From Verrucomicrobiota bacterium (GTDB lineage: Bacteria; Verrucomicrobiota; Kiritimatiellia; JAAZAB01), in NCBI GenBank assembly GCA_043814705.1, contig JBDRJR010000122.1, forward strand, positions 9,295 through 73,294: a DNA stretch of 64,000 nucleotides, in the 5' to 3' direction. Positions 3,917 to 59,114 of the stretch are shown in pieces. The notes beneath the pieces were generated by a model, which ran no database searches, was not told the DNA's origin, and was given only the letters and a program-made list of their open reading frames with translations. Position 1 is the stretch's first letter. The number at the start of each line of letters is the position of its first letter. Both the position numbers and the translations under genes were made by a program.

Positions 3917-4007
3917 ATCCTAACCCGTCAATTAAAACCAGAACGAAAATAATATTTTTTACTTGCACCCAACGATACATCCTTCTATTGTTGCACGGAT
4001 CGGAGAT

Positions 4008-4062
4008 CAGACGACAGACGACTGTCTACAGACGACAGACGACTGTCTACAGACGACAGATG
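4008..4062. repeat. Tandem 21-mer (three GACGACN-type heptamers) x2.5 in the manA/gltA divergent spacer
   Basis: agacgacagacgactgtctac is repeated in tandem. The same GACGACAGACGAC motif recurs at 7230, 9815, 29137, 29280 and 30541. Confidence 0.8.
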
Positions 4063-4100
4063 GAATCCATAAATCGGAAATCAAAAACTGGAGATTGGTT

Positions 4101-8539: not shown

Positions 8540-8643
8540 GAAATTTGAAATTCGAAATTAGGGCAAGAAATGAGTGCGTCAACCGGTTCATTAACAGCAC
8601 AAAAGCATGCAGGCCGAATATCTAATTTCCAGTTTCCAATTTC
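8540..8643. repeat. MITE-like element: 22-nt terminal inverted repeats made of GAAATTN heptamers flanking a ~60-nt core (copy 1)
   Basis: Left arm gaaatttgaaattcgaaattag and right arm ctaatttccagtttccaatttc are inverted. Homologous copies lie at 16288-16417 and 58605-58698. Confidence 0.65.
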
Positions 8644-13480: not shown

Positions 13481-14878
13481 TTATTTGCGCCGTCGCGGCG
13501 GTGCATGGATGCACTGAGCGTGCACGGCATGCGCCGCTTCCATCCAGGCTTCCGACAACGTCGGATGCGCCTGGATAGTTCGCGCGAATTCCGTGGCGGT
13601 CAGTTCCGCCTGAACGGCGGTTACGGCCGTGGCGATCAATTCCGTGGCATGCGCGCCGATAGCCGCGGCGCCCAGAAGCTGGTCGGTATCCGCGTCCGCA
13701 ATCCATTTAACGAAGCCGGTTGTCTCGCCCGAAGCCACTGCCTTGCCCAACGCCGCAAAATGGAACTTGCCGGTTTTAACAATGCGGTTCTGCTGTTTGG
13801 CTTCCTGTTCGGAAAGCCCCACCGTGGCGATTTCCGGCGCCGTGAAAATGCAGGATGGCACAACCTGCGCGCGCAAAGTCAACCGTGGTCCCACGGCATG
13901 CTCCGCGACCTTTAACCCTTGGGCCGTGGCCGCATGCGCCAGTTGCGGCCCGCCGTTGACGTCGCCAATCGCATAAATTCCCGCCGCCTTCGTCTGGCAG
14001 GCGGCATTTACCTCGATATAACCTTTGGCATTGGGCGTAAGCCCGGCCTTGTCCAGGTCCAGTTTTTCGGTAACCGGCCGGCGGCCAACGGCCGCCAGGA
14101 GTAGTTCCGCTTCTATTGTCTCACCGGCCACCTGGCCCTTAACGCCCTGTGCCCCGGCCTTGATCTGCTCCAGCGGCTTGCCCGTAAGGATACTAATTTT
14201 TAATTGGTTTTCCATGTAGCGGCGCGCATCCGCGCGCAAGTCAGCATCCAACATGATCAGAATGTCATCGAGGATTTCAACGATGGTCACCTGGGCGCCA
14301 AGCTGGGCGGCCAGGCAGGCCAGCTCACAACCGATCACGCCGCCGCCAAGCACGATCAACCGCGCAGGCAGGTCGGTTCGGTCAAGGAATGCGCGGCTTT
14401 CCACGACGGTTGTGGACTTCGGTAAAAAGGCCGGGAGCGCCGCGCTGGATCCAGTGGCAATAATGATACGCGCGGCCTCCAAAACCACGGATTCCTTCCC
14501 GTTCCGCTGGATGGTCAGGCGATTGCGGGTCATAAATGCGGCCTGGCCTTCGAACACCGTGACGCCGTTGGCCTTAAGCAGTTGCGCAATACCGCCGCGC
14601 AGTTTTTCAACCACCTGGTTCTTGTGCTGGATCATGGCGGCATAATCGAATGAGGCCTTTTCGACACTGACCCCCAAGGCTTGGGTCGGCCGCATGTGCC
14701 AGTATAGCGAAGCGGACGCAATTAAAGTTTTTGTCGGGATACAGCCCCAGTTCAGACAGGTCCCGCCAAGTGATTCCTTTTCCACAATGGCCACGGAAGC
14801 GCCCAATTGGGCCGCGCGGATCGCCGCCGGGTAGCCGCCCGGACCGGCACCAATGACGATCAGATCATACTTTTCCAT
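13481..14878 (-). CDS. lpd: Dihydrolipoyl dehydrogenase (E3)
   Basis: GGTCLNWGCIPTK redox disulfide, FAD and NAD Rossmann motifs, and a C-terminal HPTLSE motif. Confidence 0.92.
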   Translation of the reverse strand: MEKYDLIVIGAGPGGYPAAIRAAQLGASVAIVEKESLGGTCLNWGCIPTKTLIASASLYWHMRPTQALGVSVEKASFDYAAMIQHKNQVVEKLRGGIAQLLKANGVTVFEGQAAFMTRNRLTIQRNGKESVVLEAARIIIATGSSAALPAFLPKSTTVVESRAFLDRTDLPARLIVLGGGVIGCELACLAAQLGAQVTIVEILDDILIMLDADLRADARRYMENQLKISILTGKPLEQIKAGAQGVKGQVAGETIEAELLLAAVGRRPVTEKLDLDKAGLTPNAKGYIEVNAACQTKAAGIYAIGDVNGGPQLAHAATAQGLKVAEHAVGPRLTLRAQVVPSCIFTAPEIATVGLSEQEAKQQNRIVKTGKFHFAALGKAVASGETTGFVKWIADADTDQLLGAAAIGAHATELIATAVTAVQAELTATEFARTIQAHPTLSEAWMEAAHAVHAQCIHAPPRRRK

Positions 14879-16278
14879 AATTCCAGATCCTCAAGCATGT
14901 TTTTGACACGATTGACAAAGCGCGCGGCACAAGCGCCATCCACCAGGCGGTGGTCGGACGAGAGCGTAATATTCATCATTGCGCGGATTTCGATTTTGCC
15001 GCCCCTGACCACGGGCATCGAACGAATGCTGGCCACCGCCAGGATCGCGCTTTCACCGGGGTTGATGATGGCCGTAAAATGATCCACGTTGAGCATGCCC
15101 ATGTTCGACACGGTAAAGGTGCTACCGGTCATTTCATCCGGGGTCAGCTTGCCATCGCGCGCCTTAAGGGCCAGACTGGCGGCACGTTCATGCAGTTCGG
15201 CAATCGAAAGATCGTGGGCATTACGAATTACCGGAACCACCAAGCCCTCGGCAATTGAAACCGCCAGGCCGAGATGCACACCACTATGCCAGCGGGTGGT
15301 GCGCCCATCAGTCGAACTATTAAGCGCCGGGAACTCCACAAGCGCCAAGGCAACAGCCTTGAGAATAAAATCGTTAACTGAAAACGGTTTTCCGGCCTTT
15401 TTCAGAATTTTACGCCATTCCAGCAGATCGGTCATATCCACCGCAACGGTCACATAGAAATGCGGTGTCGTCGTGAAGCTCATGGTTAACCGCTGGGCGA
15501 TGACCTGCCGTATCTTGCTCATTATCACGGGCTTTTCGGCAATCGCCCGCTGAATCATCGCCACCGTAATGCGTTCCCTGTTTTCGTCCGCAGGCATGGT
15601 TAAAATATCTATGCCATTCTCGCGCGCCAGGTTCTTGGCGGTCGGCGTGATTTTAAGATCGGCATAGTGTTTCGCTTCAAGGTAGGTCCGGACGTCCTTT
15701 TCCACCACGCGTCCACCGGGACCGGTGCCGGGAATAGGATCGGCGCTGATGGCGCATTCGCGGACCATCCGCCGGGCACGCGGAGATATGGATGCACGTG
15801 GCCTGCCCTCCGTAGCCACGATCAAAGCGGGAGCGTAGGAGGGAGCGTTAAGCGTGGAGCGTGGAGCGGGCCCTGGCACACCCGCCGCAGGCTGAACGGA
15901 AGCGGCAGGCGCTGGTCGCAGAGCGGCGGCGGTCAGAGCGATCGCGGGTTCCGCGGCGGGCGCGGACCGGACTATCGGCTTCACTTCGGGAATCGGTTCG
16001 CCCGGTTGGCCGATAAAGGCCACGGGCACCGCGACCGGCACGGTCTGGCCTTCGGCCACGACAATTTTCAAGAGTGTGCCTTCAAAAAAACTTTCGATTT
16101 CGAGAACGGCCTTGTCCGTTTCGATTTCAAACAAAATTTCGCCCTTTTTTACCAGATCGCCTTCGCGTTTGTGCCACTTGACAATCGTGGATTCCTCCAC
16201 AGTCTGTCCGAGTTTCGGCATGATGACTGTTTGAGCCATGGACAAGGTGCTTCCGTTAGAATAAAATTTTATAGCCAT
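14860..16278 (-). CDS. Dihydrolipoamide acyltransferase (E2) with a single lipoyl domain
   Basis: Lipoyl-lysine motif ETDKA, an Ala/Pro-rich linker, the subunit-binding domain, and the catalytic DHRLVDG motif. The true start is probably MAQTVIMPKLG (~16239). Confidence 0.85.
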   Translation of the reverse strand: MAIKFYSNGSTLSMAQTVIMPKLGQTVEESTIVKWHKREGDLVKKGEILFEIETDKAVLEIESFFEGTLLKIVVAEGQTVPVAVPVAFIGQPGEPIPEVKPIVRSAPAAEPAIALTAAALRPAPAASVQPAAGVPGPAPRSTLNAPSYAPALIVATEGRPRASISPRARRMVRECAISADPIPGTGPGGRVVEKDVRTYLEAKHYADLKITPTAKNLARENGIDILTMPADENRERITVAMIQRAIAEKPVIMSKIRQVIAQRLTMSFTTTPHFYVTVAVDMTDLLEWRKILKKAGKPFSVNDFILKAVALALVEFPALNSSTDGRTTRWHSGVHLGLAVSIAEGLVVPVIRNAHDLSIAELHERAASLALKARDGKLTPDEMTGSTFTVSNMGMLNVDHFTAIINPGESAILAVASIRSMPVVRGGKIEIRAMMNITLSSDHRLVDGACAARFVNRVKNMLEDLELWKSMI

Positions 16279-16287: not shown

Positions 16288-16417
16288 GAAATTGGAAATC
16301 AGAAATTGGTGCAACAACGGAATCTCGCCTCTGTAAAATGCGTTTCGTTATTTTAATTCGGTTTGTTTGCATCAACAGCATAAGAACATGAAGTCCGAAT
16401 TTCCAATTTCTAATATC
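16288..16417. repeat. MITE-like element, copy 2 (GAAATTGGAAAT inverted arms) in the spacer between the E2 and E1 genes
   Basis: Left arm gaaattggaaatcagaaattgg, right arm gaatttccaatttctaatatc. A 7-bp hairpin agcgttc/gaacgct follows. Confidence 0.6.
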
Positions 16418-26208: not shown

Positions 26209-27171
26209 ATGAGAGCATTATCCGGCATTCAACCTTCCGGGAAACTGCATATCGGCAATTATTTCGGCATGATGAAGCCCGCTTTGGAACTTCAGGAAAA
26301 AGGCGAGGCCTTTTTGTTCATCGCCAATTATCACGCCCTGACTTCAATCGCCGAAGCCGAAGCCCTGCGCACGCTCACGCGGGACGTAGCCCTCGACTTC
26401 CTGGCCTGCGGCCTCGATCCCGAGCGCACGGTGTTTTACCGTCAGAGCGATGTCCCCGAAGTCCATGAGCTTGCCTGGCTGTTGTCCATTGTCACACCCC
26501 TGGGACTTCTGGAACGCTGTCATTCCTACAAGGACAAGGTGGCCAAGGGCGTCCCGGCCAACCACGGGCTTTTTGCTTACCCGGTCCTGATGGCCGCGGA
26601 CATCCTGGCCGTCCAGGCTGACGTCGTCCCCGTCGGCCAGGATCAGAAACAGCACGTCGAGGTCACGCGCGACATTGCCATCAAGTTCAACCAGAAATTC
26701 GGCGAAACATTCAAGATCCCATCCCCGATGATTCGCGCAGGCGTGGCCGTGGTCCCCGGCCTGGACGGCCAGAAAATGTCGAAATCCTACAACAACACGA
26801 TTGAACTGTTCGCGTCCCAGGCGGAGACGCGCAAGGCCATTATGCGCATCGTGACCGACAGCAAAACCGTCACAGACCCGAAGGACCCCGCGACCTGCAA
26901 CGTATTTGCGCTCTACAAGCTGTTTGCGACCGAGCCAGAGCGCGCGGCCATGGCAACGCGCTACCGCGCCGGCGGCCTGGGTTACGGGGAAGTCAAAAAA
27001 GCGCTGTTTGAAAAATTCTGGGCCGTGTTCGAGCCATTCCGGCGCCGGCGAGAAGAACTGCAGAAGGACCCGGATCAGGTCGAGCGGATTCTCCAGCACG
27101 GTGCGGCGCGGGCCCGGGAAGAACTTAGCAAGACCTTAAAGGCCGCCCGCCGGGCCGCGGGGCTGGAGTAA
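26209..27171 (+). CDS. trpS: Tryptophan--tRNA ligase
   Basis: Class I HIGN and KMSKS motifs. The protein is TrpRS-sized (~320 aa) and has the GIQPSGKLHIGNY N-terminus. Confidence 0.9.
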   Translation: MRALSGIQPSGKLHIGNYFGMMKPALELQEKGEAFLFIANYHALTSIAEAEALRTLTRDVALDFLACGLDPERTVFYRQSDVPEVHELAWLLSIVTPLGLLERCHSYKDKVAKGVPANHGLFAYPVLMAADILAVQADVVPVGQDQKQHVEVTRDIAIKFNQKFGETFKIPSPMIRAGVAVVPGLDGQKMSKSYNNTIELFASQAETRKAIMRIVTDSKTVTDPKDPATCNVFALYKLFATEPERAAMATRYRAGGLGYGEVKKALFEKFWAVFEPFRRRREELQKDPDQVERILQHGAARAREELSKTLKAARRAAGLE

Positions 27172-27600
27172 ATGAAGAATGCAGAATGAAGAATGTAGAA
27201 TTAAGAATCCTGTGCCTTATCCACCAAAACCCGCTATAAAAAAATAAGAAAAGAAACCGGAACATTGCCCGCTAAACACTAGCCAAACGTATTTGAAATT
27301 TTCAGACCAAGGGAGGGCGGGCATGTTGCCCGCCGAGCCGGACGGCGACACGCCATCCCTCCTTTTATATTTAGCGTTAGAGTTCTGCAAAATAGCAAGA
27401 AAGCCGGTCATAGACCGGTGCTACACATTCGAATGTTATGCGCAAGTGCAATGTATTGAAATGCTTACGGTGTAGCAACGCTCTGCGAGCGGTGTCTTCA
27501 ATGCCTGTTTTGCATAACTCTAATTTAGCGTAATTTCGCGTGTTTAGCGGGTAAATTCTTTGGGTCGCGCGGGCTCGGCCCGCATTGGGATAAACGCAAC

Positions 27601-28341
27601 ATGCCGATTCAGGAAGAATACAAGGTCAAGCTGGAAGTGTTCGAGGGTCCGCTGGACCTCCTGCTCTACCTCATCAAAAAGGACGAGGTGGACATCTATG
27701 ACATTCCCATCGAGCTGATCGCGCGCCAGTACATGGAATACCTTGGCCTGATGCGGATGCTGGATCTCGACATTGCCGGCGAGTTCCTCGTGATGGCCGC
27801 CACGCTCATGATGATCAAGAGCCGCATGCTCCTGCCGCCGGAAGAGCGGCCCGCGCTGGAGGCCGAGGAGGAAGACCCGCGCTGGGAACTCATCCGCCAG
27901 TTGATCGAGTATAAGAAATTCAAAGATGCCGCGGCCAACCTGCAGGAAATGGAATCTTTGGCGGGCAACATGTTCCTGCGCAGTGCGGAGGATCCGGTGG
28001 TTGTGGTGGAACAGCCGGGCGTCGGGCTGGAGGACGTCACCATTTTCGACCTGATTGCGTCCTTTAACGAGGCGCTCAAGCGGATCCAGGTGAATGAAAT
28101 CGGCGAAATCATGGCCGAGCGCTTCACGGTGGCCGACGGCATCGAGTCCATCTTGGGGCGCATTAAGCGCGAAACACAAGTAATTTTTGCCACCCTGTTC
28201 CAGCCGCTCAGCACGCGCCATGAAATTATCATAACCTTCCTGGCACTGCTGGAGTTAATTCGCCTGCGCCAGGTGGTGGCCCGGCAAGAGGCGGTGTTCG
28301 GCGATATTGTAATCATGCGGCCGGAGGTTGAGGGAGGATAA
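27601..28341 (+). CDS. scpA: Segregation and condensation protein A (kleisin)
   Basis: N-terminal FEGPLDLLLYLIKKDEVDIYDIPI signature. Confidence 0.85.
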   Translation: MPIQEEYKVKLEVFEGPLDLLLYLIKKDEVDIYDIPIELIARQYMEYLGLMRMLDLDIAGEFLVMAATLMMIKSRMLLPPEERPALEAEEEDPRWELIRQLIEYKKFKDAAANLQEMESLAGNMFLRSAEDPVVVVEQPGVGLEDVTIFDLIASFNEALKRIQVNEIGEIMAERFTVADGIESILGRIKRETQVIFATLFQPLSTRHEIIITFLALLELIRLRQVVARQEAVFGDIVIMRPEVEGG

Positions 28342-28487
28342 GGGGCAAAGGCACAAAGGAGCAGAGGGACAAAGGGGCAGAGAAATCGAGCGAATGCTCA
28401 GCAGTTTGATACGCAAATTAAACAGCAAGAGGCCGGACTGAGCTTTGTGCCTCTCGATCGCTCTGTGCCTTTGCCCCTTTGTGCCTG
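28340..28487. repeat. Imperfect inverted repeat (~19-bp arms, about 100 bp apart) made of RRCAAAGG octamer tandem units, in the scpA-scpB spacer
   Basis: aggggcaaaggcacaaagg ... ctctgtgcctttgcccctt. The arms are reverse complements. Confidence 0.6.
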
Positions 28488-28504: not shown

Positions 28505-29446
28505 ATGACATCAGAAACCAATCAACCGACCAAAGCGAATGCTCTTCCGGAACTCAAACAGGTCCTGGGCGCCCTGTTGTTTGCCGCCCGGAAACCGATT
28601 GCGGCGAGTGAGTTGTGCGGGATATTGGCACAAGTGGCCCAAAACGGCGAAGACACCACCCGTGCATTCGGCAAAATCAAGGAGAGCGATATTCGGGCGG
28701 CCCTCGAACAATTGAAGACCGCGCTGGCCGAACGCAAGCTGGGCCTTATCCTCGTAGAAGTGGCGGGCGGGTTCCGGTTCCAGACGGATCCCTCCGGCGG
28801 TCACTGGGTGCGGCATTTGTTGAATCTGGACAAGCCGTCGCGCCTTTCCAAGCCGGCCCTGGAAACGCTGGCCATTATCGCGTATCGTCAGCCGACGACC
28901 CGCGCCGAAATTGAGGCTTTACGCGGCGTCAACGTGGACGCCATGATGCGCCACTTGCTGGAACTGCAGTTGATCCGCATCGTTGGCCGCAGTGACCTGC
29001 CGGGTAGACCGCTGATGTACGGAACGACCCAATTGTTCCTGGAACATTTCGGCCTGAGCAGTGTCAAGAACCTGCCGGGCGTCGAACAGTTGTCGCGGCG
29101 GGATGCGGAACGCGTCAAGAAGGAAACCGACGCCGGAGCGGCGAAGACGGACGACGGACCTGAAAATACAGACGCCGGACGCCAGGCGCCGGACGCCAGC
29201 TTGGAGAAGACGGACCCTCCTTCGCCAGAGCGCTTGCCCCTACGCGAAGCCGCTTCGGCAGGACAAGTCGGAGGACAAGCGACGGACGACGGACCAGAGA
29301 CGACAGACGACCAACAGCAAACAGCGGAGGAAGAGAAGGAAGAAACCGAAAAAGATGAGGATGAAGACAAAGAGTACGACGAAGACGAGGAAGATGAAGA
29401 AGACGAAGATGATGATAAAGACGAGGACGCTGAAGGAAGGGAATGA
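28505..29446 (+). CDS. scpB: Segregation and condensation protein B with a ~110-aa acidic low-complexity C-terminal extension
   Basis: ScpB winged-helix core (LETLAIIAYRQPTTRAEIEALRGV). The tail TDDGPENTD...TDDGPETTDD...EEDEEDEDDDKDED is encoded by GNCGGAC/GACGAC heptamer repeats. Confidence 0.8.
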   Translation: MTSETNQPTKANALPELKQVLGALLFAARKPIAASELCGILAQVAQNGEDTTRAFGKIKESDIRAALEQLKTALAERKLGLILVEVAGGFRFQTDPSGGHWVRHLLNLDKPSRLSKPALETLAIIAYRQPTTRAEIEALRGVNVDAMMRHLLELQLIRIVGRSDLPGRPLMYGTTQLFLEHFGLSSVKNLPGVEQLSRRDAERVKKETDAGAAKTDDGPENTDAGRQAPDASLEKTDPPSPERLPLREAASAGQVGGQATDDGPETTDDQQQTAEEEKEETEKDEDEDKEYDEDEEDEEDEDDDKDEDAEGRE

Positions 29447-29449
29447 ACC

Positions 29450-30547
29450 ATGCATGTTGCCGAGTTGAGAAAAAAAATCGATGCGCTGGATCGGCGCTTA
29501 GTCAGCCTGCTGAATGCGCGCGCCCGGGTGGCCGTGCGGATCGGACAGTTAAAGCAGGTATCGGCTGTTGACGTGTATGTACCCGCACGCGAAAAAACCG
29601 TGCTCGCGCACGTTCAACGTGAAAATCACGGGCCATTAGGCAAGGAAGCGATGGACTCCATTTACCGGGAGATCATGTCCTCCACGCGTTCCTTGGAACG
29701 GCAGGTGCGCGTGGCCCATTTTGGCCAGGCCACCACATTCACGCACCAGGCCGCACGCCTGCGTTTCGGCGCCAGCGTGACTTACATTCCCTGTGAAACC
29801 ATTTCCGACGTTTTTGAAAAAGTCCGCAATGGCCAGGCGGACCATGGCGTCGTCCCAATTGAAAATTCGACCGAGGGCGCGGTAACTTACACCCTGGATG
29901 AATTCGCCCAGACACCATTGAAGATTTGCGCGGAAATTTACCTGCCGATTTCACACCACTTGATGGCTCGCCACGCGCCACGAGTGGCCGCCAATCCGTG
30001 CCGGGGCATCCGGCAGGTGGTCAGTCATCCGCAAGTGCTTGCGCAGTGCCGCAACTGGTTGCACACCGAAATGCCCGGGGTAGAAATCGTGCCGGCAACC
30101 AGCACCGCCCGCGCGGCGGAAATGGCTGTTCAGGATCGCCGTGTGGCGGCCATTGGCAGTATTCTGGCGGCAGAACATTATCATTTACAGGTGCTGGCGG
30201 CGGAGATTCAGGATCTAAGCGGTAATATGACCCGCTTTCTGGTGATCGGCAAGTCGTTTGGGTCTCCCACCGGCGACGATAAGACCTCGATTTTCTTTGC
30301 GGTAAAGCATAAGGCCGGCACCCTGCACAACGCCTTGGGAGCGCTCAAGAAATACCGACTCAATATGACTAAAATTGAGTCCCGCCCCAACAAATTGAAA
30401 GCCTGGGAATATCTTTTTTTTGTGGATATTGAAGGCCATGTCATGGAACCGCGGGTGCACAAGGCGTTGCGCGAGCTGGAGCGCCATTGCACGCTGATGA
30501 CGGTCCTGGGGGCTTATCCCCAGGCACCGGAGGCCGCAGAAGACTGA
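29450..30547 (+). CDS. pheA: Bifunctional chorismate mutase / prephenate dehydratase (P-protein)
   Basis: N-terminal CM domain (LRKKIDALDRRLVSLLNARA), PDT domain, and C-terminal ACT domain (ESRP, LFFVDIEGH). Confidence 0.85.
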   Translation: MHVAELRKKIDALDRRLVSLLNARARVAVRIGQLKQVSAVDVYVPAREKTVLAHVQRENHGPLGKEAMDSIYREIMSSTRSLERQVRVAHFGQATTFTHQAARLRFGASVTYIPCETISDVFEKVRNGQADHGVVPIENSTEGAVTYTLDEFAQTPLKICAEIYLPISHHLMARHAPRVAANPCRGIRQVVSHPQVLAQCRNWLHTEMPGVEIVPATSTARAAEMAVQDRRVAAIGSILAAEHYHLQVLAAEIQDLSGNMTRFLVIGKSFGSPTGDDKTSIFFAVKHKAGTLHNALGALKKYRLNMTKIESRPNKLKAWEYLFFVDIEGHVMEPRVHKALRELERHCTLMTVLGAYPQAPEAAED

Positions 30548-30668
30548 CGACGGACGGCAGATGACGGACGGTAGCCCGGAAAACGGAAAAAGCAAACGTC
30601 GAACGCTCAACGCTGAACGCCCAACGTCCAATGGAAAACGAAGAACGAAGAACCAAGAACAAGGAACG
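30541..30668. repeat. Composite heptamer-repeat block (GACGRCG x4, AACGYYS x5, GAACNAA x5) beginning at the pheA stop codon
   Basis: gactgacgacggacggcagatgacggacgg ... aaacgtcgaacgctcaacgctgaacgcccaacgtcc ... gaacgaagaacgaagaaccaagaacaaggaacg. This is near-identical to the block at 7230-7310. Confidence 0.8.
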
Positions 30669-30713
30669 ATTTCTTATTCTCATTGACCATTTCCGCCGAA
30701 GGCGGATCCGCCT

Positions 30714-31899: not shown

Positions 31900-33090
31900 T
31901 TAAATTTTTCCACGCCTAATGGCATTACTGCCGAAGGAATGACGCAATGCATCCACCGCCTGATCAATTTTCTTGTTCCGGCTGTCCGGCCCCCTGCCGG
32001 ACAATGCCGCAAACAATTCCGGCTGTGCCGGCGCGGCCTGATCCAGGCGCGCAAGATTACTCACGCCGAACCCCACCAACCGAATTTTCCGTTTTACGCG
32101 CGCACACTCAAACAAGGCCAGCGCGCAGGCAATCAATTCTCGATCGCTATTGAGCGCCGTGGAAAATGACGTTTGCCGGGTAATGGTTGCAAAATCACCA
32201 AACCGCAATTTGATCCGGGCGGTTTTGGCCAGTTTTCCGGATTTACGCAATCGTCCGCCAACTTCCTCCGCCAACTCCAACAGGCGTTGACGGACCCGCT
32301 CCATATCAGGTTCATCATACGGAAACGTATATTCATTGGAAATGCTTTTCTCTTCCCAATGTGTAATGACCGGACGGTTGTCACGGCCCCGGGCCAGATC
32401 AGCCATATCCGCCGCACCCTTTTTCCCAAACAAGCGCTCCAATATTCCTGGATTCAGCGCCTGCAATTGACCAATTGTCCGGATGCCTTCCTTGGCCATT
32501 CGGGCACCGGTGACTTTGCCGATCCCCCACATTTTGGTTACCGGAAGCGGCGCCAGAAAAGCCATGATCTCAGGCGCCGTTACCGGGACCACCGTCAAAC
32601 CATCCGGTTTGTGCATGTCGCTGGCCATCTTGGCCAGGAACTTATTGGGAGCAACCCCCACCGAAGCCGTCAATCCCGTCCGTGTCTTGATGCGTTCCTT
32701 TAATTTTGCGGCGATTGTCACCGCATCACCCCATATCCGCAAGGTCCCGCTGACATCAAGGAAGGCCTCATCCAGCGAGAGTGGTTCGACCAGCGGCGTA
32801 AACTCCTCTAAAATGTCCATAATCCGCGCGGAAATTTCCGCATAACGTTCCATGCGCGGCGGCACAAATACAGCCTGCGGACATAATTTGCCGGCGGTCC
32901 GCGACGGCATGGCGGAATGGATACCATAACGGCGAGCCTCATAGGAACAGGTGGCAACCACGCCGCGCTGATCCGGTGGAGAACCGACGACCAGCGGGAG
33001 CCCGCGCCACTCCGGATGATCCAGGGCCTCAATGGCCGCATAGAATGCATCCATATCCACATGTAGGATTGTTAAAAAAGAGGCGGGCAT
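31900..33090 (-). CDS. dinB: DNA polymerase IV (Y-family)
   Basis: ILHVDMDAFYAAIE, SYEARRYGI and the little-finger domain. The start is taken at MPASFL. Confidence 0.85.
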   Translation of the reverse strand: MPASFLTILHVDMDAFYAAIEALDHPEWRGLPLVVGSPPDQRGVVATCSYEARRYGIHSAMPSRTAGKLCPQAVFVPPRMERYAEISARIMDILEEFTPLVEPLSLDEAFLDVSGTLRIWGDAVTIAAKLKERIKTRTGLTASVGVAPNKFLAKMASDMHKPDGLTVVPVTAPEIMAFLAPLPVTKMWGIGKVTGARMAKEGIRTIGQLQALNPGILERLFGKKGAADMADLARGRDNRPVITHWEEKSISNEYTFPYDEPDMERVRQRLLELAEEVGGRLRKSGKLAKTARIKLRFGDFATITRQTSFSTALNSDRELIACALALFECARVKRKIRLVGFGVSNLARLDQAAPAQPELFAALSGRGPDSRNKKIDQAVDALRHSFGSNAIRRGKI

Positions 33091-33243
33091 TAACTCTGCC
33101 TGATCGCGCAAGGTTTTGCATTTCGTTTTGAGCATCGAAAGTCAATGGCGTATCACGCGCGGCGCCGATCACGCCGGCAATTCCGCGATGTGCAGATCGG
33201 CCAAGCATGCCACGGCTCTTTTTTCCTGAGAAGCGGAAAAAAC

Positions 33244-34074
33244 CTACGGCCTGGCCCACTCGTGCACAAGGCAATCAAATCCGGGAACCGAGACTTTTTC
33301 CGCGCTATTTGTCAAGTCCGTCCTCTTCAAGGAAAACTCGCGCGGTGCCGCACCGGAATTGAAGACGAAGGTGACTATCCTGTCGCGCAACTGCCAAGTC
33401 GCACCGGATGCGTTTTCACCCGACAATTTGACAAGATCGTCCGCCCGCTTGCCATCAACGATGAAATCCTCGTATTTTGCAAGCAGGCTGTTCGCCTGGC
33501 GGATCGGCGCGATCAACTGGTCGTCCATGCCCCACACCCCGGTAAATGACCAGCCGGCGGTACTGCCGTAGCGAGTGACCAGCTTGATGATGTCGATTTT
33601 CAAACTTTGGAACATTGAGCAACGCTGACCCCAACTGCCGCCCGCACTCGGCCCGTATAGGCTGATTATGATCTTTGGCAGAGGCTGGCCTTCTTTCAAT
33701 CCCTTTGCCAGCGCCGACCGCAAAGCCTCAACACGATTTTCACCGCCAGGGGGAAACGGACCGCCGGTACGCGCCATCGCAATGTCCAACACCGGCGCAA
33801 GCATCGCCCAGTCCACGCCATACGCCTGGCGGCAATAATCACCCAGCTTAAGGCCTTTTTCAATCCTGTCCGTCGGCCAGCCGCTGTAAATGCCAACCGT
33901 GACACGCGGATTGACACGCCGAGCCGAATCGTGGAGTAATTCAATAAAGCGGCGATGCTGCCAGCATTTGAAATCCGTCACCTTCTCGTAAAGCTCCCCG
34001 CAGATCTCATCGGTTGTCGGGAGATGATCCAGCTTGGCATAGTCATGAAAGGCCTGGAGGCACCGCTTGCACAG
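33244..34074 (-). CDS. C-terminal continuation (277 codons) of the same reading frame after the in-frame TGA at 34075-34077; candidate pseudogene or recoded gene
   Basis: The 93 nt between the two predicted ORFs are open in the same frame (…PLDI-TGA-LCKRCLQAFHDYAKLDHLPTTDEICGELYEKVTDFKCWQ…). Confidence 0.5.
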   Translation of the reverse strand: MCKRCLQAFHDYAKLDHLPTTDEICGELYEKVTDFKCWQHRRFIELLHDSARRVNPRVTVGIYSGWPTDRIEKGLKLGDYCRQAYGVDWAMLAPVLDIAMARTGGPFPPGGENRVEALRSALAKGLKEGQPLPKIIISLYGPSAGGSWGQRCSMFQSLKIDIIKLVTRYGSTAGWSFTGVWGMDDQLIAPIRQANSLLAKYEDFIVDGKRADDLVKLSGENASGATWQLRDRIVTFVFNSGAAPREFSLKRTDLTNSAEKVSVPGFDCLVHEWARP

Positions 34075-35637
34075 TCAAATATCCAATGGCTTACGCTTCT
34101 CCGGTGGAATATCTTTACGGTAAGGGGCCCCGGAGATTTCATGATCAATCCAGATGCCGTCCATGGCGTTGACCTCAATGCGTTTGTTCAAGACTTCGCA
34201 GTATCGCGCCAGCCATGGATTGTTCAGTCCCGCTCCGGCGTCGGATGGCGGAGTGTCATATTTCCCTCCGTCCAGAACGTGCGTCAGGCAAACGTTGTAG
34301 TTGGCACTCTTTCCCCCTTTGTAATTCTCGGCCCGATATTCGGGGTGCGCCTCGCAATACGGCTTGGCGGCGGATGTATAGCGGACATGCAAATACGCCC
34401 GCGCCTGCATATCCCGGCGCTTGGCCTCCTGGATGACGGGAAAGCTGAACTCGATCGTATCATTGGAAGCTCCATACACCGGCTCATCAAATTGAGGCAT
34501 GATTGTGTTCAGCCCCCAGGTTGCAAACTTCTCCACAAAGATCTTTTGCACAGGGATTGGCTCGCGCTGGAGCATTGTTTCGGCAATCCAGACCGATGTC
34601 TCGAGTTTCTTAGGTGTCAGCGTTTTGCCGGCGGGTATGAGCGCAACGGCTCCCTCGCGGCACACGCGCTGTTTGCCGTCGGTAATGCACCAGACCAGCT
34701 TGGCCGGCAATACGGCGTCGGCGGCCACATCGAAAATAAAAGTCCGGGTAAAAAACACCGTGCCGCCTTTTGCAAGCGCATCCTGCGCAGACATGGATTT
34801 GCTTTTAATGTCGTCACCCTTCGCCTCGCACGTGACGGCATATCGCGTGCCGGGAGTAAGCTGGACCCTGTTTGTGACAAACCAATGCGCGATTTTCACA
34901 CCCTGCTCAGCGGTGACGGTTATTTCCTTCCCGGCGGGAAGCGCATAGACCAATTTGCCGGAATCGGCCTCGTGAATATTCAGGTTCCGGAAGTGGAGGG
35001 TTCCGGAATAGGTGGAATTGTCGGGCCACTTCAAGAGCAGTGGCATGACGCCGGCGGCGTTGTCAGGCGTTATGACTTCTTTCGAGAATTTGCGCCAATC
35101 GAAGGAACCGATGAATTTTATAATGGGGGTGTAACTGATAGTGCCGCCGACTGCTCTGATGTAGCAAAAGTTCAGCTCTATCCCCTCGCAAAGATTTTGC
35201 ATGTCCGGGCGATAGCATATTTCCGTCCTTTTTTCCCCCTCGGCAATGACCGCGCGCGCCTGTTCGTCCACTGAAGCAACCTTATGGTTATAACCGCTCT
35301 CATCCGTTCCTATAACCTGCAGTTTGCTCAAGGAATATGCGCCCGGCAGGCTGAGGACAAGGGTATATTCATCATCGGCCAGCCCTTCCACCGGCATAAT
35401 CCTGGCATGCAGCATCAATTTCCCGCCCGGTGTCACTTCGACCGCATGTGTGAGAAAGGGTGTCTGGCTGACGGGTAGCGCTTCCAGTTTTACCGCTGAT
35501 ACTTGCCCTATGACCGCGGGCGGAGCTGTTTTGGCGGTATCCGTATCCTTAACTTTACAGCCGCAACAAAATGAAAGAAGCAACGCGCTCGACACACTGA
35601 CCAGCATCCTGCGATTTTTCATCAGCTTTCTCATCAC
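34075..35637 (-). CDS. Lipoprotein, N-terminal 520-aa portion of a putative ~797-aa glycoside-hydrolase-like protein; ends at an in-frame TGA
   Basis: Lipoprotein signal MMRKLMKNRRMLVSVSSALLLSFCC-GC. The downstream ORF 33244-33981 continues in the same frame with no other stop. Confidence 0.6.
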   Translation of the reverse strand: MMRKLMKNRRMLVSVSSALLLSFCCGCKVKDTDTAKTAPPAVIGQVSAVKLEALPVSQTPFLTHAVEVTPGGKLMLHARIMPVEGLADDEYTLVLSLPGAYSLSKLQVIGTDESGYNHKVASVDEQARAVIAEGEKRTEICYRPDMQNLCEGIELNFCYIRAVGGTISYTPIIKFIGSFDWRKFSKEVITPDNAAGVMPLLLKWPDNSTYSGTLHFRNLNIHEADSGKLVYALPAGKEITVTAEQGVKIAHWFVTNRVQLTPGTRYAVTCEAKGDDIKSKSMSAQDALAKGGTVFFTRTFIFDVAADAVLPAKLVWCITDGKQRVCREGAVALIPAGKTLTPKKLETSVWIAETMLQREPIPVQKIFVEKFATWGLNTIMPQFDEPVYGASNDTIEFSFPVIQEAKRRDMQARAYLHVRYTSAAKPYCEAHPEYRAENYKGGKSANYNVCLTHVLDGGKYDTPPSDAGAGLNNPWLARYCEVLNKRIEVNAMDGIWIDHEISGAPYRKDIPPEKRKPLDI

Positions 35638-35911
35638 CGCACCTCCTTATTGATGTTATCGTTCTGGATCCGCGTCGGAATTTCCCGCGGCGCTTTGCAT
35701 CCGCTTTCGTCAAAATTACCTGGCCACCGCGAAAAAAATGGCACAGTCGATCAAGATAATCGATGATCGTACTCCTGGAATTTAGCATGTCAATCCTGAT
35801 TTTTTGTCATTTTTCTGATCGTCAACATATAATATTTTGTTTGCCGGCGTGGTCCCAATATGGTAACAATAAACTGCTTATGTTTTATCTCCGTCAACCC
35901 GAGGTCCCGCG

Positions 35912-38014: not shown

Positions 38015-40747
38015 TCAACGATTTTCTAACGGTTCCACACGGTAATCCGATTCATTCAGATCAACCCGCAGGCCTTGTCCTGGGGTCAAACCAATCCACG
38101 CGACGCCATCCGTATCATTGTTCCCCGGCATTACCGCGCCTGGTTCCACACACCGGATGCGCCAGATGGCGGGCATGCCCGCCGGGTTACGGCACGCAAA
38201 CGTAACCATGTCGGCGTCATCCTGCCCAAGCATGGCCTTGTCCCAGCGCGTAGAGTGTGAAGTGTGAAGCGTGGAGCGTGTTTCCGACACATCCTGTCTG
38301 TTCCACTCTATTTTCAGAACGGTTTCACCGCGCCGGACAATAAACTTGTTGGAGGCGGCTTGATATTGCCAAGCCATATTGCCGCGCCATGCGCCCTGCC
38401 CTTCACTGGCAAGGAGCTGGATCGGAATGCCGCGCTCGCGCGCCACAGTAAGCACCTGCCGGAAAACAGGCGAACGCGCATTGGTCGTTACGCACCAAAG
38501 TTCTTTGACGCGAAAAGCGGCCAATATATCCAGCGCACCACCGGCATGACGCTCGTCCGCCGCCGGCAAAACCAACACGGACAGCTGGTTAACGCCCTGC
38601 CGTTGCAGTTTTTGCACCACACGCCGTCCGGAAAACCGCGATCCGGCATGAACCAGCATATGGGCCGTGCCCGGTGCCTTGATCCGGCAAATGGGTATAC
38701 CACTGATATTGGTTATATCGGCGGATACCCGGTTCCAGTCCGGAATCATACTACCGAGCAAGGCGGCAACCAATAGAGCGGGCCCCGCCAGGCGGATGCT
38801 CCACCGCCGCCATCCATGCTTGATGTCACAGTCCGGATACTGGGCACGGCCCGGCAACCAGGCCAGGAGCGTTCCAAACCAGACAAGCACTGCCCAGATC
38901 GAAGGCGAGGCGACAAAGAAATGACCCCCTGGAATCCGGGCCATGCCATCGGTGATGCAGATCAAAAATGAAACCAGCACTACGTTGGTAAAGTTAAACA
39001 CTTCGCCCAGCCACGGCAAACAGGTTCCAAACAGGATTGAGAAAAAACCGGCTAACAAAACAAAAGCACTGACGGGAATGATTATTAAATTGGCCAGCAA
39101 GGCTATCGGCGAAAATAAGTTGAACCAGCGGGCAATAAGCGGCGTCGAAACGGCCCAAGCCGCCAGGGATGAGACCATCAACAGCGTAACAAAGCGTTGT
39201 GCACTGCGCCGGAATTGGACAACGGGGCGTTCCGGCTCCAATCGCCAGGGGTCCGGCGCCAGCCATGGTTCCAGCAATTTCAGCATGGGCGGGCAGAAAA
39301 CAATCAGGCCGGCCACCACCCCGAACGAAAGCAGAAATCCGTAATCAAACAATTGAAAAGGGTCCACGGCCAGAATCAGGATGGCCGCCAGCGCCATGGC
39401 CGAGGGCAAATCGGGTTTACGGCAAAGCAGGGGCCCGAGGAAAACCAGGAGCGCCATCAAACAGCCGCGCACGGCGCTGGAACTTAACCCCGTGGAAAGC
39501 GTAAAGGCGATTAACACCGGCGCCACATATAGAAACCATTTCACCCGGCACACCCGCTGGGACTGGAGCACCACGATGATGAACAAGGCCAGGATGGCGA
39601 CGTGCTGGCCGGAAATGGCGAAAATGTGATAGGTTCCCGTGGCAATAAAATCGCGGCGGATTTTGTCCGGCAATTCCTGACGATAGCCCAACAACAACGC
39701 CTGCAAGAGGCCCACGACTTCGGGACGATGTTCAATCCCACGTGCCAGATAATTTCCGGCCTTCCGCCGCCCCTGGAAACACCAGGCCATGAGCCGTGCG
39801 CCCTGCCCCTCGGCCAGACAAACACCGGTTGACGGATCCGCGGCAAAGGAATACCTGTTTTTAATCCATTCCCCGACGGGACGTGAAGCTCCCCGCGGTC
39901 CGGCCGTTGCCGGACGGGGCAGCCTACTCCACCGTAGTCCGGCACTGCCGGACGAAGGCTGGATCTTTGCGGAACCCTCCGAAGCTCGTTCCGAAGCATC
40001 AGCGCGAGCAAAGGAGGGCTCATTCGGGAAACGAGCGTTATCCACAAGGACACCGGCAAAGCGCCAGCGTTCGCCATAATGCGGAAACTTTTTCCCCGGG
40101 ATATCGCGCAAACTGATCTGAACCGTGCCACGCGCCTTCTGCCAGGACGGCAGGCGCCGGATCGCTTCCACGCGCAAAGGGAAACTCCACGTGCGCCTGG
40201 TTCCATCCCACGTCACCCTCATAAACGGATCATCCGTGATAACCCCGGATAGCTCCACCCCTTCGCGCGGCTGATCCATTAACGCCGCCAACTCGCGGCC
40301 GGATGGATTATGCAGATATAACGCCACATTCAGCCAAGCGGTCAACAAAACCGCCAGGTATAAGCAAAACAGGCTGAGGGCAGGCAGAAGACGGACTGAG
40401 GATAGGTTGTAGACCGTGGGCTGTGGGCTGTGGGCTGGCGGAACCGAAAGCGGCAAATGCCGCACCGCCCAATACGCCGCCCAACTACCCGCCACCGATA
40501 TAACCAGCGCTGACACCGCCGTCAGAAAAAGAATGCGCGGCGCAAGCGCGGGGACAAAAATACCACCAACAATGCCAAGGATACAGCATGCGGTCAGGCC
40601 CAACAGCGGGCGGCGCAGAATGGGCTGATTGGGGCATTGCACGGGCATACCGACATGATAACGCACACAACATGGAAAACCAAGACCAGAGCCAATATGG
40701 TCGGACACGCAGACAAAACACGTAGCCGATATCAGCGGTGCCCACAA
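38015..40747 (-). CDS. comEC: DNA internalization competence protein ComEC/Rec2 (competence domain plus C-terminal metallo-beta-lactamase domain)
   Basis: Polytopic membrane core with a DUF4131-like N-terminus, a competence domain, and a C-terminal MBL fold (HAGSRFSGRRVV...ADERHAGG). The N-terminal extent is uncertain (910 aa as called). Confidence 0.8.
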   Translation of the reverse strand: MWAPLISATCFVCVSDHIGSGLGFPCCVRYHVGMPVQCPNQPILRRPLLGLTACCILGIVGGIFVPALAPRILFLTAVSALVISVAGSWAAYWAVRHLPLSVPPAHSPQPTVYNLSSVRLLPALSLFCLYLAVLLTAWLNVALYLHNPSGRELAALMDQPREGVELSGVITDDPFMRVTWDGTRRTWSFPLRVEAIRRLPSWQKARGTVQISLRDIPGKKFPHYGERWRFAGVLVDNARFPNEPSFARADASERASEGSAKIQPSSGSAGLRWSRLPRPATAGPRGASRPVGEWIKNRYSFAADPSTGVCLAEGQGARLMAWCFQGRRKAGNYLARGIEHRPEVVGLLQALLLGYRQELPDKIRRDFIATGTYHIFAISGQHVAILALFIIVVLQSQRVCRVKWFLYVAPVLIAFTLSTGLSSSAVRGCLMALLVFLGPLLCRKPDLPSAMALAAILILAVDPFQLFDYGFLLSFGVVAGLIVFCPPMLKLLEPWLAPDPWRLEPERPVVQFRRSAQRFVTLLMVSSLAAWAVSTPLIARWFNLFSPIALLANLIIIPVSAFVLLAGFFSILFGTCLPWLGEVFNFTNVVLVSFLICITDGMARIPGGHFFVASPSIWAVLVWFGTLLAWLPGRAQYPDCDIKHGWRRWSIRLAGPALLVAALLGSMIPDWNRVSADITNISGIPICRIKAPGTAHMLVHAGSRFSGRRVVQKLQRQGVNQLSVLVLPAADERHAGGALDILAAFRVKELWCVTTNARSPVFRQVLTVARERGIPIQLLASEGQGAWRGNMAWQYQAASNKFIVRRGETVLKIEWNRQDVSETRSTLHTSHSTRWDKAMLGQDDADMVTFACRNPAGMPAIWRIRCVEPGAVMPGNNDTDGVAWIGLTPGQGLRVDLNESDYRVEPLENR

Positions 40748-42985: not shown

Positions 42986-44245
42986 TTATCTGGCGTCCGA
43001 TGTCCGGCGTCCGGCGTCTGATCGCCGCCGGATGGCCGCAATGCGCTGGAGAACCGGCGGGTGACTGTAGTCGAAAAACACCTTGAGCGGATGCGGCGTC
43101 AAGTTGGCAAGATTATCCACACTCAACTTTTTCAAGGCTGTGATCATAATTTCCGGCTGGTTGAAACTATCCGCGGCAAACGCGTCAGCCTGGTATTCAA
43201 ATTGGCGGGAGACCCAGTTGCTGAAAACGGAAAGCGCCATATCAATCGGCGTATAAAGCAGGCCAAAAAATACGATCCCCGCATACACGGAAGGTTTGGC
43301 CACACCACATGCCTGAAAAAGCGCGGGCATCCGGATCACCAGCGACAGAATAAAGAACATCAGGCCGGAGCTGGCCAGCGAAATCAGCAAAAACTTATAA
43401 ATATGACGGTATTGATAATGACCGATCTCGTGCGCCAGCACACTGACCAGTTCCGGCGTGGTATGCTTCTGGATCAGCGTGTCGTAAAGCACAATCCGCC
43501 GGAACCGGCCAAACCCCGTGAACATGGCATTGGCCTTCGCGGACCGCCTGGATCCATCCATGGCATACACGCCCTGCATCTTGAAATTCTGCGAACGGGC
43601 ATAATTTTCAATTGCCTGGCGCAGTTCACCCGGCGGCAGGGGAACAAACTTATTGAAAAGCGGCATAATGACAACCGGCGCAATAAATGCCAGGAACAAC
43701 TGAAAACCAAAAAGTCCAAGCCAGGCATAAACCCAGGCCCGCGAACCGGCTTTTTCAAAGAACCACAACACGAGCGCCAGCGCCAAGGCGCCCAAAATGC
43801 CGGCCAACGCCACACTTTTCAGCAGGTCCAGCACAAAGGTGCCGACCGTCATCCGGTTGAATCCGTAGCGCTCCTCAATCACAAATGTCTCATAGATTGC
43901 GAACGGGAGCTGAATGAAAAAAAACGGAATCATCAGGAGACCGGCAAAGATCAGGCCGGTAACAATCGCCCCCGCCTGAAAATGGCGCGCCGCCTGATCA
44001 ACAAGCGCAAAACCGCCCGCCAGGATAAAAACAACGATCAGGGCGGTAAAAAAGATGGTCTTGATGATAGCAAGCCAGGTATTGGCGCGCAGATAGGCTT
44101 GGGATGTTTGGTAGCGCGCGGCGTCATAATACCCCTCGAATTCCGACGGCAGTCGCGTGGTTAACTGCCGGACATTAAGCCAGTTGATCAGGACATCCAG
44201 CAGGCATGCGCCGACCAGCACGATCAAAATGAGGACAAGCATTTT
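42986..44245 (-). CDS. M48 family zinc metalloprotease (Ste24/HtpX-like, CAAX-protease type)
   Basis: HEIGHYQYRH zinc motif after multi-TM helices. The start is taken at MLVLILIV, because the longer ORF to 44389 runs through a heptamer repeat. Confidence 0.8.
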   Translation of the reverse strand, partial: KMLVLILIVLVGACLLDVLINWLNVRQLTTRLPSEFEGYYDAARYQTSQAYLRANTWLAIIKTIFFTALIVVFILAGGFALVDQAARHFQAGAIVTGLIFAGLLMIPFFFIQLPFAIYETFVIEERYGFNRMTVGTFVLDLLKSVALAGILGALALALVLWFFEKAGSRAWVYAWLGLFGFQLFLAFIAPVVIMPLFNKFVPLPPGELRQAIENYARSQNFKMQGVYAMDGSRRSAKANAMFTGFGRFRRIVLYDTLIQKHTTPELVSVLAHEIGHYQYRHIYKFLLISLASSGLMFFILSLVIRMPALFQACGVAKPSVYAGIVFFGLLYTPIDMALSVFSNWVSRQFEYQADAFAADSFNQPEIMITALKKLSVDNLANLTPHPLKVFFDYSHPPVLQRIAAIRRRSDAGRRTSDAR

Positions 44246-58604: not shown

Positions 58605-58698
58605 GAAATTTGTAATTCGAAATTTGGAAGAGAGACAAAACATGGCTATGCATTCAAAACGCGCGAAGACGAATATCTAATTTCCAATTTCTAATTTC
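58605..58698. repeat. MITE-like element, copy 3 (GAAATTN inverted arms) inserted between two hydrogenase membrane-subunit genes
   Basis: Left arm gaaatttgtaattcgaaatttgg, right arm ctaatttccaatttctaatttc. It fills the whole 113-nt spacer between the 58599 stop and the 58713 start. Confidence 0.65.
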
Positions 58699-58712
58699 AA
58701 AGGATTCGATCT

Positions 58713-59048: not shown

Positions 59049-59114
59049 GTTTTCTGGAAGAAATGGTTAATGGCTAATGGTTGATGGTCAATGTTATTCA
59101 GGAGACAGGCATCC

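Follow-up and report, generated by a model that had tools for sequence, protein, structure and literature searches.

How does non-coding repeat DNA come to be read as protein? The question is raised by a 64,000-nucleotide (nt) stretch of a Verrucomicrobiota genome (Kiritimatiellia; contig JBDRJR010000122.1), hereafter the window, in which the gene scpB and several unrelated genes carry tandem repeats of a 7-nt unit (heptamers) that also stand between genes. An earlier note on this DNA had proposed that such heptamers are translated and that the ~110-amino-acid (aa) tail of ScpB, like that of a membrane protein, was born when a lost stop codon opened the gene into repeat DNA on its 3′ side. Our analysis makes it very likely that heptamers specific to this clade have colonized unconstrained DNA, including the 3′ ends of genes and disordered protein linkers; in ScpB, they entered a tail that already existed. 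Loci of relatives' genomes or contigs are denoted by L numbers (L001 is GCA_018823155.1) and protein homologs by P numbers. Independent gene calls come from the relatives, and the window itself was read from its open reading frames (ORFs).

The window contains 17 tandem blocks of period 7, compared with 0.05 in locally shuffled sequence, and the program TRF agrees. Blocks of periods 4–6 and 8–13 number 0–3, and those of period 14, the double of 7, number 10. The motif GACGGACGACGGAC, with up to two mismatches, occurs 7 times in the window (0.47 expected), three successive GACs at 7-nt spacing 11 times (0.19 expected), and AACG at 7-nt spacing 12 times (0.45 expected). At least eight families of units, which include GACGGAC/GACGCCG, AACGYCC, GAAGAAC, AGAGGTC, AATGMAG, and AATTTCC, are joined as arrays into composite modules. 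The arrays are degenerate: units within an array are unlike, most arrays show 69–94% matches, and they are not built from one (near-)perfect unit. Rfam, used at its gathering thresholds, gave no match anywhere in the window. Tiling by recurrent 10-mers had too high a background at k = 10, and blastn and autocorrelation were used in its place.

The scpB gene is laid out as follows.

28505–29446, plus strand: scpB, 313 aa, stop codon included (ORF list; Pfam SMC_ScpB, E = 2e-47; match to an NCBI protein from a metagenome-assembled genome).
28565–29080, plus strand: core domain of ScpB, aa 21–192 (Pfam envelope; residues invariant across 22 orthologs).
29129–29330, plus strand: hypervariable linker with heptamer-type modules (periodicity at lags 7, 14, and 21; TRF; indel-rich ortholog alignment).
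29143–29159, plus strand: GACGGAC block in the linker.
29169–29199, plus strand: GACGCCG block in the linker.
29206–29280, plus strand: short hairpin-type module in the linker.
29280–29325, plus strand: GACGGAC/GACAGAC block in the linker.
29331–29443, plus strand: ancestral acidic C-terminal module, EEEK...EYDEDEEDEEDEDDDKDEDAEGRE (period 3 without a lag-7 signal; ortholog conservation).

ScpB matches SMC_ScpB (PF04079) with 161 bits (gathering cutoff 27.4) over positions 3–159 of the 160 in the profile, and it is 100% identical to the metagenome-derived NCBI protein, which is annotated as ScpB and labeled Verrucomicrobiota. Contigs related to the locus carry the labels Kiritimatiellia, Kiritimatiellota, Verrucomicrobia, or Verrucomicrobiota. 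The gene order is scpA (PF02616, 27601–28341), scpB, pheA; scpA and scpB stand in the same order in all relatives, with smc near, and pheA follows scpB in relatives as well. The tail of ScpB extends 121 aa beyond the Pfam domain and ~105 aa beyond the last residues conserved among orthologs. The peptides that the earlier note had quoted from ScpB, the membrane protein, E2, and ComEC can all be read from the sequence; those of ScpB lie in KTDDGPENTD (29140–29169), in ATDDGPETTDD (29277–29311), and in the acidic run EEDEEDEDDDKDED (29386–29428).

At the DNA level, the tail falls into two parts. In the linker (29120–29330), autocorrelation amounts to 0.41, 0.44, and 0.48 at lags 7, 14, and 21, and the lag-7 value was reached by 0 of 5000 codon shuffles, so that the periodicity resides in the DNA and is no by-product of amino-acid composition. 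Together with the blastn homology between coding and non-coding copies given below, this bears out the proposal that repeat DNA of an intergenic type is translated here. The acidic block (29331–29443) has values of 0.55–0.61 at lags 3, 6, and 9, a pure period of 3, and 0.24 at lag 7, which is the background level. It is an ordinary acidic coding run with no heptamer DNA, and not the GAAGA-rich repeat block for which it had been taken.

The same data bear on the reverse direction, in which protein selection for TDDG- or PEK-type peptides gave rise to the periodicity of the DNA, and coding fragments decayed into the non-coding copies. As this direction would have it, the peptide of the first linker module shows fair conservation throughout the clade, and ScpB, ScpA, and the membrane protein all read the composite repeat described below in one common frame. 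However, successive copies of a 7-nt unit fall into three different frames, so that a repeated peptide cannot account for neighboring heptamers that are identical, and codon shuffling never reproduces the lag-7 value. Moreover, the majority of blocks do not code. They come from many unit families, some of them AT-rich and with so many stops that they could not have been coding, and the ScpB tails of outgroups are free of heptamer peptide motifs. We find this direction scarcely credible.

The age of each part of the ScpB tail can be read from its homologs. The 20 closest ones share one layout: a core that is invariant up to ...LPGVEQLSRRDAERVKRE, an indel-rich modular middle, and a mostly conserved end, ...EEYDEDEEDDDEDEDEDEDVEGRK, with an EYDED motif and a (V/I)EGRK terminus. 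Acidic runs are present in 19 of 21 close homologs (the two exceptions, P0017 and P0019, look truncated) and in 58 of the 99 more distant ones, where EYDED is also found. The ScpB of L010 ends in ...EDEEDEYDEDDDEDEDDDEDDDIEGRK (IEGRK), and that of L011 has an acidic run with an ETRK terminus; long acidic tails, most of them with EYD(D/E)E, occur in L011, L016, L018, L020, L022, L027, and L031. Heptamer-type peptide motifs are found in 13 of the 21 close homologs and in none of the 99 distant ones. The lag-7 z-score of the linker is 2.7–7 in the clade versus ~0–1 in the outgroups L010 and L011. Similarly, the density of period-7 blocks is 0.23–0.73 per kb in the window, L001–L007, L009, and L055 (L008, with 0.09, is an exception) and falls to 0 in L010, in L011, and in the majority of distant loci (Kiritimatiellales and Pontiella). 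Since the acidic end is conserved in L010 and L011, whose linkers lack period 7, and acidic runs recur in 58 of the 99 distant homologs, the acidic module is older than the repeats. The tail of ScpB is therefore ancestral; its linker was already there when repeats entered it, or expanded within it, in frame.

Of the ~110-aa tail, the linker does contain repeats, but the acidic block, which has a pure period of 3 and is conserved in L010 and L011, whose linkers lack period 7, is not derived from them. Likewise, the tail is lineage-specific in its heptamer peptides, but its acidic end is shared by outgroups; the sharing of tails with distant orthologs, which the note itself had named as refuting its view, thus holds for the acidic part. 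An origin of the entire tail, acidic run included, by stop loss into 3′ repeat DNA is very improbable. Stop loss does operate at the neighboring ScpA (in L003 and L004) and in the membrane protein, and the GC-rich repeat families hold few or no stop codons. Against this, the acidic end (EYDED...VEGRK) is in frame in the close orthologs as well as in L010 and L011, acidic tails are widespread among more distant Kiritimatiellia, the acidic block shows period 3 only, and conserved coding sequence stands on either side of the repeats in ScpB.

The frame of the acidic end also speaks to a phase-variation switch, in which slippage by one heptamer in the linker would toggle the acidic tail. A unit length that is not divisible by 3 would suit such a switch, as would P0019 (ENA, from a 953-bp contig), which has no acidic end and continues into more sequence of the repeat type, RTPDRRRRTLLRRSATEG (...RTPDRRRRTLLRRSATEGRHQT); its end reflects either truncation at the contig end or a natural frameshift variant. 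Yet the tracts are short (2–4 units) and, at 69–94% matches, degenerate, which makes them poor slippage substrates; the acidic end is in frame in 19 of 21 close homologs; and P0019, from its short contig, is possibly truncated. L004 and L005, independent assemblies of a single relative that are 99.84% identical, showed no indels in what is a small sample, and L001, L002, and L006 are 100% identical and hence uninformative. The probability of such a switch is close to negligible. In GCA_018823155.1, the ScpB linker (L001 6621–6790) consists of three tandem copies of a composite 57-nt (19-aa) unit, GRRTPDAGPEKMEDGLKTDD, a higher-order repeat that is made of heptamers and has a length divisible by 3.

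A non-coding element downstream of pheA connects the translated repeats with intergenic ones.

30545–30670, plus strand: non-coding 126-nt composite beginning at the pheA stop codon (sequence; blastn alignments).

The order of its parts is (GACGGAC)n, CCCGGAAAACGGAAAAAG, (AACGYCC)n, CCAATGGAAAA, (GAAGAAC)n. By blastn, it aligns with the tail of the membrane protein (72% over 104–110 nt, E = 3e-11 to 3e-12), as the earlier note had supposed, with the scpA–scpB spacer of L001 (76% over 102 nt, E = 1e-12), and with the coding ScpB linkers of L009 (E = 2e-8) and L055 (E = 6e-8). The composite is thus dispersed, with copies after pheA, in the membrane-protein tail, in the scpA–scpB spacers of L001 and L003, and in the ScpB linkers of L009 and L055 (E values of 1e-12 to 6e-8). 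The second module of the ScpB linker in the window encodes KTDPPSPERLPLREAASAGQVGGQATDDG, and the peptide KTDPPSPERLPLREAASAGQ recurs in membrane-protein tails of other genomes. A metagenomic ortholog of the membrane protein, P0140, ends in KTDPPTPERFPLREAASAGQDGGQAPDDG, the same module as in the ScpB linker, and a non-coding copy of this second module is present in L088. Coding and non-coding heptamer copies are therefore the same elements. The heptamer composites gave no significant RNA fold (z-scores of −0.3 to +0.1, with 0.1 for the post-pheA element).

Two observations on module structure stand beside these results. A short palindromic module, CCAGGCTCCGCCGAAGCGCTTCGCCCAGGCGAG (PGSAEALRPGE), is nested within an AACxxCC array in L003 (5860–5960) and L004 (6740–6790); since it occupies the same nested point in two gene contexts, composite and insert together form a unit that is repeated. 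L088 is a heptamer-poor outgroup, and the sole heptamer/hairpin module found there (13524–14081) precedes an rve-family integrase gene by ~350 nt.

At the 3′ ends of genes, such modules are translated up to the first in-frame stop. Two proteins of the window end in this way.

6492–7316, plus strand: conserved hypothetical multi-pass membrane protein, 274 aa (translation; 100% identical to an NCBI hypothetical protein).
42989–43022, minus strand: GACGCCG block encoding the last 12 aa, RSDAGRRTSDAR, and stop of an M48 (Ste24-type) peptidase (sequence).

In the membrane protein, the last ~30 codons (7223–7313) consist of the composite repeat, and the ORF at 6474–7316 terminates in RRQTTDDRPEKNEEEVNVERSTSNSQL. 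Its 37 homologs are alike up to ...WKAKAICYQRLWNSGAK (...CYQRLWNSGAK), after which the ends differ: some distant and a few close members stop within a few residues (P0143 in ...WDSGKSQL, P0131 in ...KTDNG), and others carry 10–40 repeat-encoded residues from differing modules. In the DNA, the repeat begins directly after the conserved core and the position of the stop inside it varies, with a TAG after 9 repeat codons in L086, a TGA within a GGATGAC unit in L087, and a TAA after ~30 repeat codons in the window; the heptamer-poor L088 has an unrelated 17-aa end. According to these data, this extension of the protein is lineage-specific, and its length is set by the chance position of a stop within the 3′ repeat. 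The proposed drift of the stop codon into repeat DNA is thereby supported for this protein, in which orthologs terminate at differing points of the repeat. In ScpB, by contrast, where conserved coding sequence flanks the repeats on both sides, birth of the tail by stop loss has to be given up.

ScpA provides a second series. In the window it terminates in EVEGG, ahead of the spacer element, whereas ScpA of L001 and L002 runs 9 codons further into a GACGGAC block. That of L003 gains 65 aa by way of the whole composite (...TTDDGRRKTGEANSEDPTPGS...ESNAQRPMEDQNKI), and that of L004 gains 55 aa by way of different modules, as it does in the independent assembly L005. For the M48 peptidase, the Pfam Peptidase_M48 match extends to aa 456 of 467 and to position 185 of 186 in the profile, and its repeat-encoded tail, as read from the DNA, shows what appears to be the same drift, in a gene that the earlier note had not listed. 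Peptides of the tails include ATDDGPETTDDQQQTAEEEK and QTTDDRPEK.

These 3′ ends reflect where the blocks lie in general. Of 27 blocks in gene-called relatives, the majority lie between genes or run across gene ends, though the DNA is ~87–92% coding, and 10 of 13 blocks on the 3′ side overlap the stop codon or begin no more than 4 nt after it. In the window, 3′ blocks stand likewise at the stops of trpS, scpA, pheA, and an FMN-binding gene; those at 27168, 28340, 30545, 52010, and 9814 start at the stop codon of the upstream gene or a few nt from it. Since blocks abut or overlap stop codons, the boundary between ORF and repeat is fluid by construction. The stop codon is frequently part of the first heptamer unit (window, L001, L003, L004, L086, and L087).

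Whether a block can be read through depends on its composition. The GC-rich families are T-poor on the sense strand of the adjacent or enclosing gene in all examined cases except one (T content 2/71 and 0/46 in the ScpB blocks and 2/34 in M48) and hence have few or no stop codons on that strand. Translated blocks have no in-frame stops, and the two remaining frames hold few if any; the second ScpB block has none in any frame and the first has one out of frame. The AT-rich families AATGMAG, AATTTCC, and AATGGTT carry stops and remain intergenic.

Two elements next to scpA and scpB illustrate non-coding contexts.

27168–27210, plus strand: AATGMAG block, beginning within the trpS stop codon, stop-rich and non-coding.
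28338–28487, plus strand: inverted-repeat element of ~150 nt that fills the scpA–scpB spacer, of a different repeat class and untranslated here.

The AATGMAG family is also found at the orthologous trpS position in L001 and L004. After pheA, the unit is of the GACGGAC type in the window, of the GACGCC type in L001, GAAGCGT in L003, and AGAGGTC in L004; the presence of different families in orthologous spacers indicates fast turnover. The inverted repeat between scpA and scpB has arms of GGGGCAAAGGCACAAAGGAGCAGAGGGACAAAGGGGCAGAG and its complement, which are themselves of period 8/16, and its predicted RNA fold has −65 kcal/mol (z = −5.1). The scpA–scpB spacers of sister genomes contain heptamer modules in place of the inverted repeat, and ScpA reads into them.

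The preference for gene ends also suits a different emphasis, namely that the blocks are primarily cis-elements at ORF boundaries, serving past the stop codon as unstructured RNA, C-rich or purine-rich, on which Rho or another RNA-binding protein would load, as back-up stops, or as unstructured leaders ahead of start codons, with translation being incidental. The blocks are unstructured, they almost always share the orientation of their gene, and they begin at or within a few nt of a stop codon or shortly ahead of a start codon. Comparable roles have been suggested for TAACTGA repeats (PMC4679880). A core of 3–4 nt (GAC, AACG) is kept every 7 nt while other positions vary, more like a periodic binding motif than like pure slippage. 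On the other hand, different unit families in orthologous spacers argue against sequence-specific recognition, and the copies internal to linkers have no obvious boundary role. We consider a primary boundary function possible though rather doubtful; the model is drawn from sequence, and it would be compatible with colonization of unconstrained DNA and not exclusive of it.

On the start side, blocks of the AT-rich families AATTTCC and CCATTNA/AATGGTT lie just upstream of start codons at 8615–8644, 16390–16417, 58669–58703, and 59060–59095, and in relatives at L004 8075–8112 and L086 12089–12118. A 30-nt sequence, CGAATATCTAATTTCCAGTTTCCAATTTCA, is identical in the window and L086 and lies upstream of, or at the very start of, a radical-SAM gene. 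A perfect 21-nt unit, CAGACGACAGACGACTGTCTA, is present in 2.5 copies (100% matches) at 4008–4060, upstream of the citrate synthase domain; it falls within an over-long TTG-start ORF (3963–5402) and probably belongs to the 5′ untranslated region (UTR).

Further in-frame copies were found inside genes. The SMC protein of L003 has an insert, QDKSDDRRQTTDLKGDQR (GACGACAGAC heptamers), between KEHHH and AEAPAA...; in L001 and L004, both flanks are conserved and the insert is absent. The window contains two more cases.

15841–15872, minus strand: ACGCTCC-type block encoding PRSTLNAPS in the linker of E2 between the lipoyl and the peripheral subunit-binding (E3-binding) domain (period-7 block).
38245–38284, minus strand: ACGCTYC/ACACTYC block in ComEC encoding ETRSTLHTSHSTR (period-7 block; sequence).

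The E2 block (peptide APRSTLNAPSYAP) lies at about aa 136–146, between the lipoyl domain (17–87) and the E3-binding domain (164–197) as defined by Pfam, and the E2 ortholog in L086 has a block of a different unit, GGCGTCC, in the same linker. For ComEC (peptide ETRSTLHTSHST), a metagenome scan with the C-terminus gave two relatives, L089 and L090; the window and L089 share a 12-aa segment, TLHTSHSTRWDK, that the more distant L090 lacks. The heptamers that the earlier note had placed in E2 and ComEC are thus in frame in both. In ScpB, the SMC of L003, ComEC, and E2, the repeats are in frame with conserved flanking protein sequence, and all translated blocks lie outside detected Pfam envelopes. 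The ComEC of L089 also has GWGRHL hexapeptide repeats, GWGRHLGWGRHLGWGRHLGWG, at ~1495–1570 and 2080–2120, two places where that of the window has none. Singleton GACGGAC units at 33316 and 33868 were considered as remnants of a fragmented smc and rejected, as the region codes for DinB-like and other proteins. Synteny is broken at 31900–35640: L001, L003, and L004 have smc (~1240 aa, minus strand) right after hisC, and the window has a DinB-like polymerase ORF and unrelated ORFs, with no smc in that position.

These results fit a model in which degenerate tandem heptamers occupy unconstrained DNA in this Kiritimatiellia clade, often as composite modules of ~100 nt. The GC-rich families encode hydrophilic low-complexity peptides that are rich in T, D, G, R, Q, P, E, N, and S; with few stops, no significant predicted fold, and hydrophilic products, they can be translated harmlessly wherever the protein tolerates disorder. 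At the 3′ ends of genes, the first in-frame stop inside a block fixes the C-terminus, and its chance position lets tails of 0–65 repeat-encoded residues be gained and lost between orthologs, as the ortholog series demonstrate for the membrane protein and ScpA and the sequence by itself for M48. Inside genes, in-frame blocks are found in pre-existing disordered segments, such as the ScpB linker, the C-terminal tail of SMC, the E2 linker, and a ComEC loop. ScpB accordingly consists of a conserved winged-helix core, a hypervariable linker colonized by repeats, and the ancestral acidic module; because selection keeps the latter in frame, only net multiples of three would survive, as in the 57-nt unit of L001. 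Open ORFs and the conserved frame suggest that the tails are made as protein, and structure prediction suggests that they are disordered. Modules may have spread by slippage together with recombination or copy-paste. By analogy with the Hfq C-terminal domain, one may speculate that the acidic end of ScpB is a nucleic-acid mimic or a charge module on SMC–ScpAB.

Several points weigh against this model. The AlphaFold2 tail has no secondary structure and mostly pLDDT values <50 (block means 36–56), but the model, run on the 22-sequence ScpB alignment, is poor overall (mean pLDDT 53), and its support for disorder is weak. Translation is argued from open reading frames and frame conservation, and the comparisons of E2 and ComEC from one or two orthologs each. 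The first linker module, TDDGRQTTDxGPEKTEDG, is fairly conserved as protein across the clade, so part of the ScpB linker may now be under selection. Blocks near the ORF starts at 4008, 8615, 11587, 40407, and 44342 belong either to a 5′ UTR or to an N-terminal extension. With regard to spread, the heptamer modules showed no terminal inverted repeats, no target-site duplications were seen by eye at the junctions read, for which no systematic search was made, and length polymorphism is absent among the few near-identical relatives compared.

With these points in mind, the locus is a clean natural example of non-coding repeat DNA turning into protein. Its ortholog series shows one module as a non-coding spacer, a short tail, a long tail, and an internal linker insert, and the conserved acidic end of ScpB marks a limit of the process, as it restricts the repeats to net in-frame changes. 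In practical terms, gene callers are likely to be inconsistent on starts and stops in these genomes, and protein clustering may yield spurious "domains", such as TDDGRQTTD or STSNAQRPMEE, common to unrelated proteins. If the blocks are boundary signals, they would offer a new handle on transcription and translation punctuation in an uncultured lineage of the Planctomycetes–Verrucomicrobia–Chlamydiae (PVC) group. Tentatively, and with more doubt than confidence, they might be regarded as a new class of modular, non-palindromic heptamer elements, co-oriented with transcription, that mark ORF boundaries by beginning at stop codons or sitting shortly ahead of start codons, probably as RNA-level signals, and that, having few or no stops on the sense strand, form a reservoir of disordered peptide for the recurrent birth and loss of lineage-specific tails and linkers in ScpA, ScpB, SMC, E2, ComEC, M48, and the membrane protein. 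A limited literature search gave no account of such repeats in Kiritimatiellia, nor of acidic ScpB tails.

Several known systems share features with these repeats. Pneumococcal BOX elements and the bacterial interspersed mosaic elements (BIMEs) of E. coli are modular intergenic repeats that follow genes, with subunits in variable number and sometimes nested; in general, they form stem-loops and are not based on heptamers. The cyanobacterial short tandemly repeated repetitive (STRR) heptanucleotide sequences, reportedly described by Mazel et al. in 1990, are similarly 7-nt tandem repeats enriched in the non-coding DNA of particular lineages. They belong to another taxon, and the repeats of the window differ in having degenerate arrays in composite modules and in the systematic translation of tails, which is not part of the STRR description. 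An excess of heptameric simple sequence repeats is more general in bacteria, according to the part of a survey considered here (PMC4692102). Closer in position are the TAACTGA direct repeats of Beggiatoaceae, cyanobacteria, and Bacteroidetes, which, in the sections of the report used here, are tandem 7-nt units, mostly intergenic and beside start or stop codons, that at times overlap ORF ends or code for peripheral residues (PMC4679880). As far as those sections describe them, they consist of one near-perfect unit with stops in all three forward frames, whereas the present repeats comprise many families of unlike units, the GC-rich ones of which have few or no stops and are translated over tens of codons, also internally.

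The nearest counterpart in protein terms is provided by the Rickettsia palindromic elements (RPEs), repeats resembling miniature inverted-repeat transposable elements that lie in frame within protein-coding genes (PMC10969869). Like the heptamer modules, RPEs are dispersed short repeats that occur between genes and in frame in unrelated housekeeping genes, where they add a peptide segment compatible with function (PMC10969869). They are palindromic, ~150 bp long, and encode a conserved peptide; the elements of the window, in contrast, are non-palindromic, unstructured (z ~ 0), and modular, with degenerate 7-nt units and variable length, and most of them are situated at stop codons or in disordered protein tails or linkers. 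The heptamer composites have neither a palindromic fold nor a terminal inverted repeat, and only the scpA–scpB element is inverted. For the ancestral end of ScpB, the comparison is with acidic disordered C-terminal tails such as that of Hfq, which, in the portion of the work used here, can mimic nucleic acid and autoregulate binding (PMC5606850). As far as that portion allows the comparison, the end of ScpB appears similar in being a long D/E run on a flexible linker in a subunit of a DNA-handling complex.

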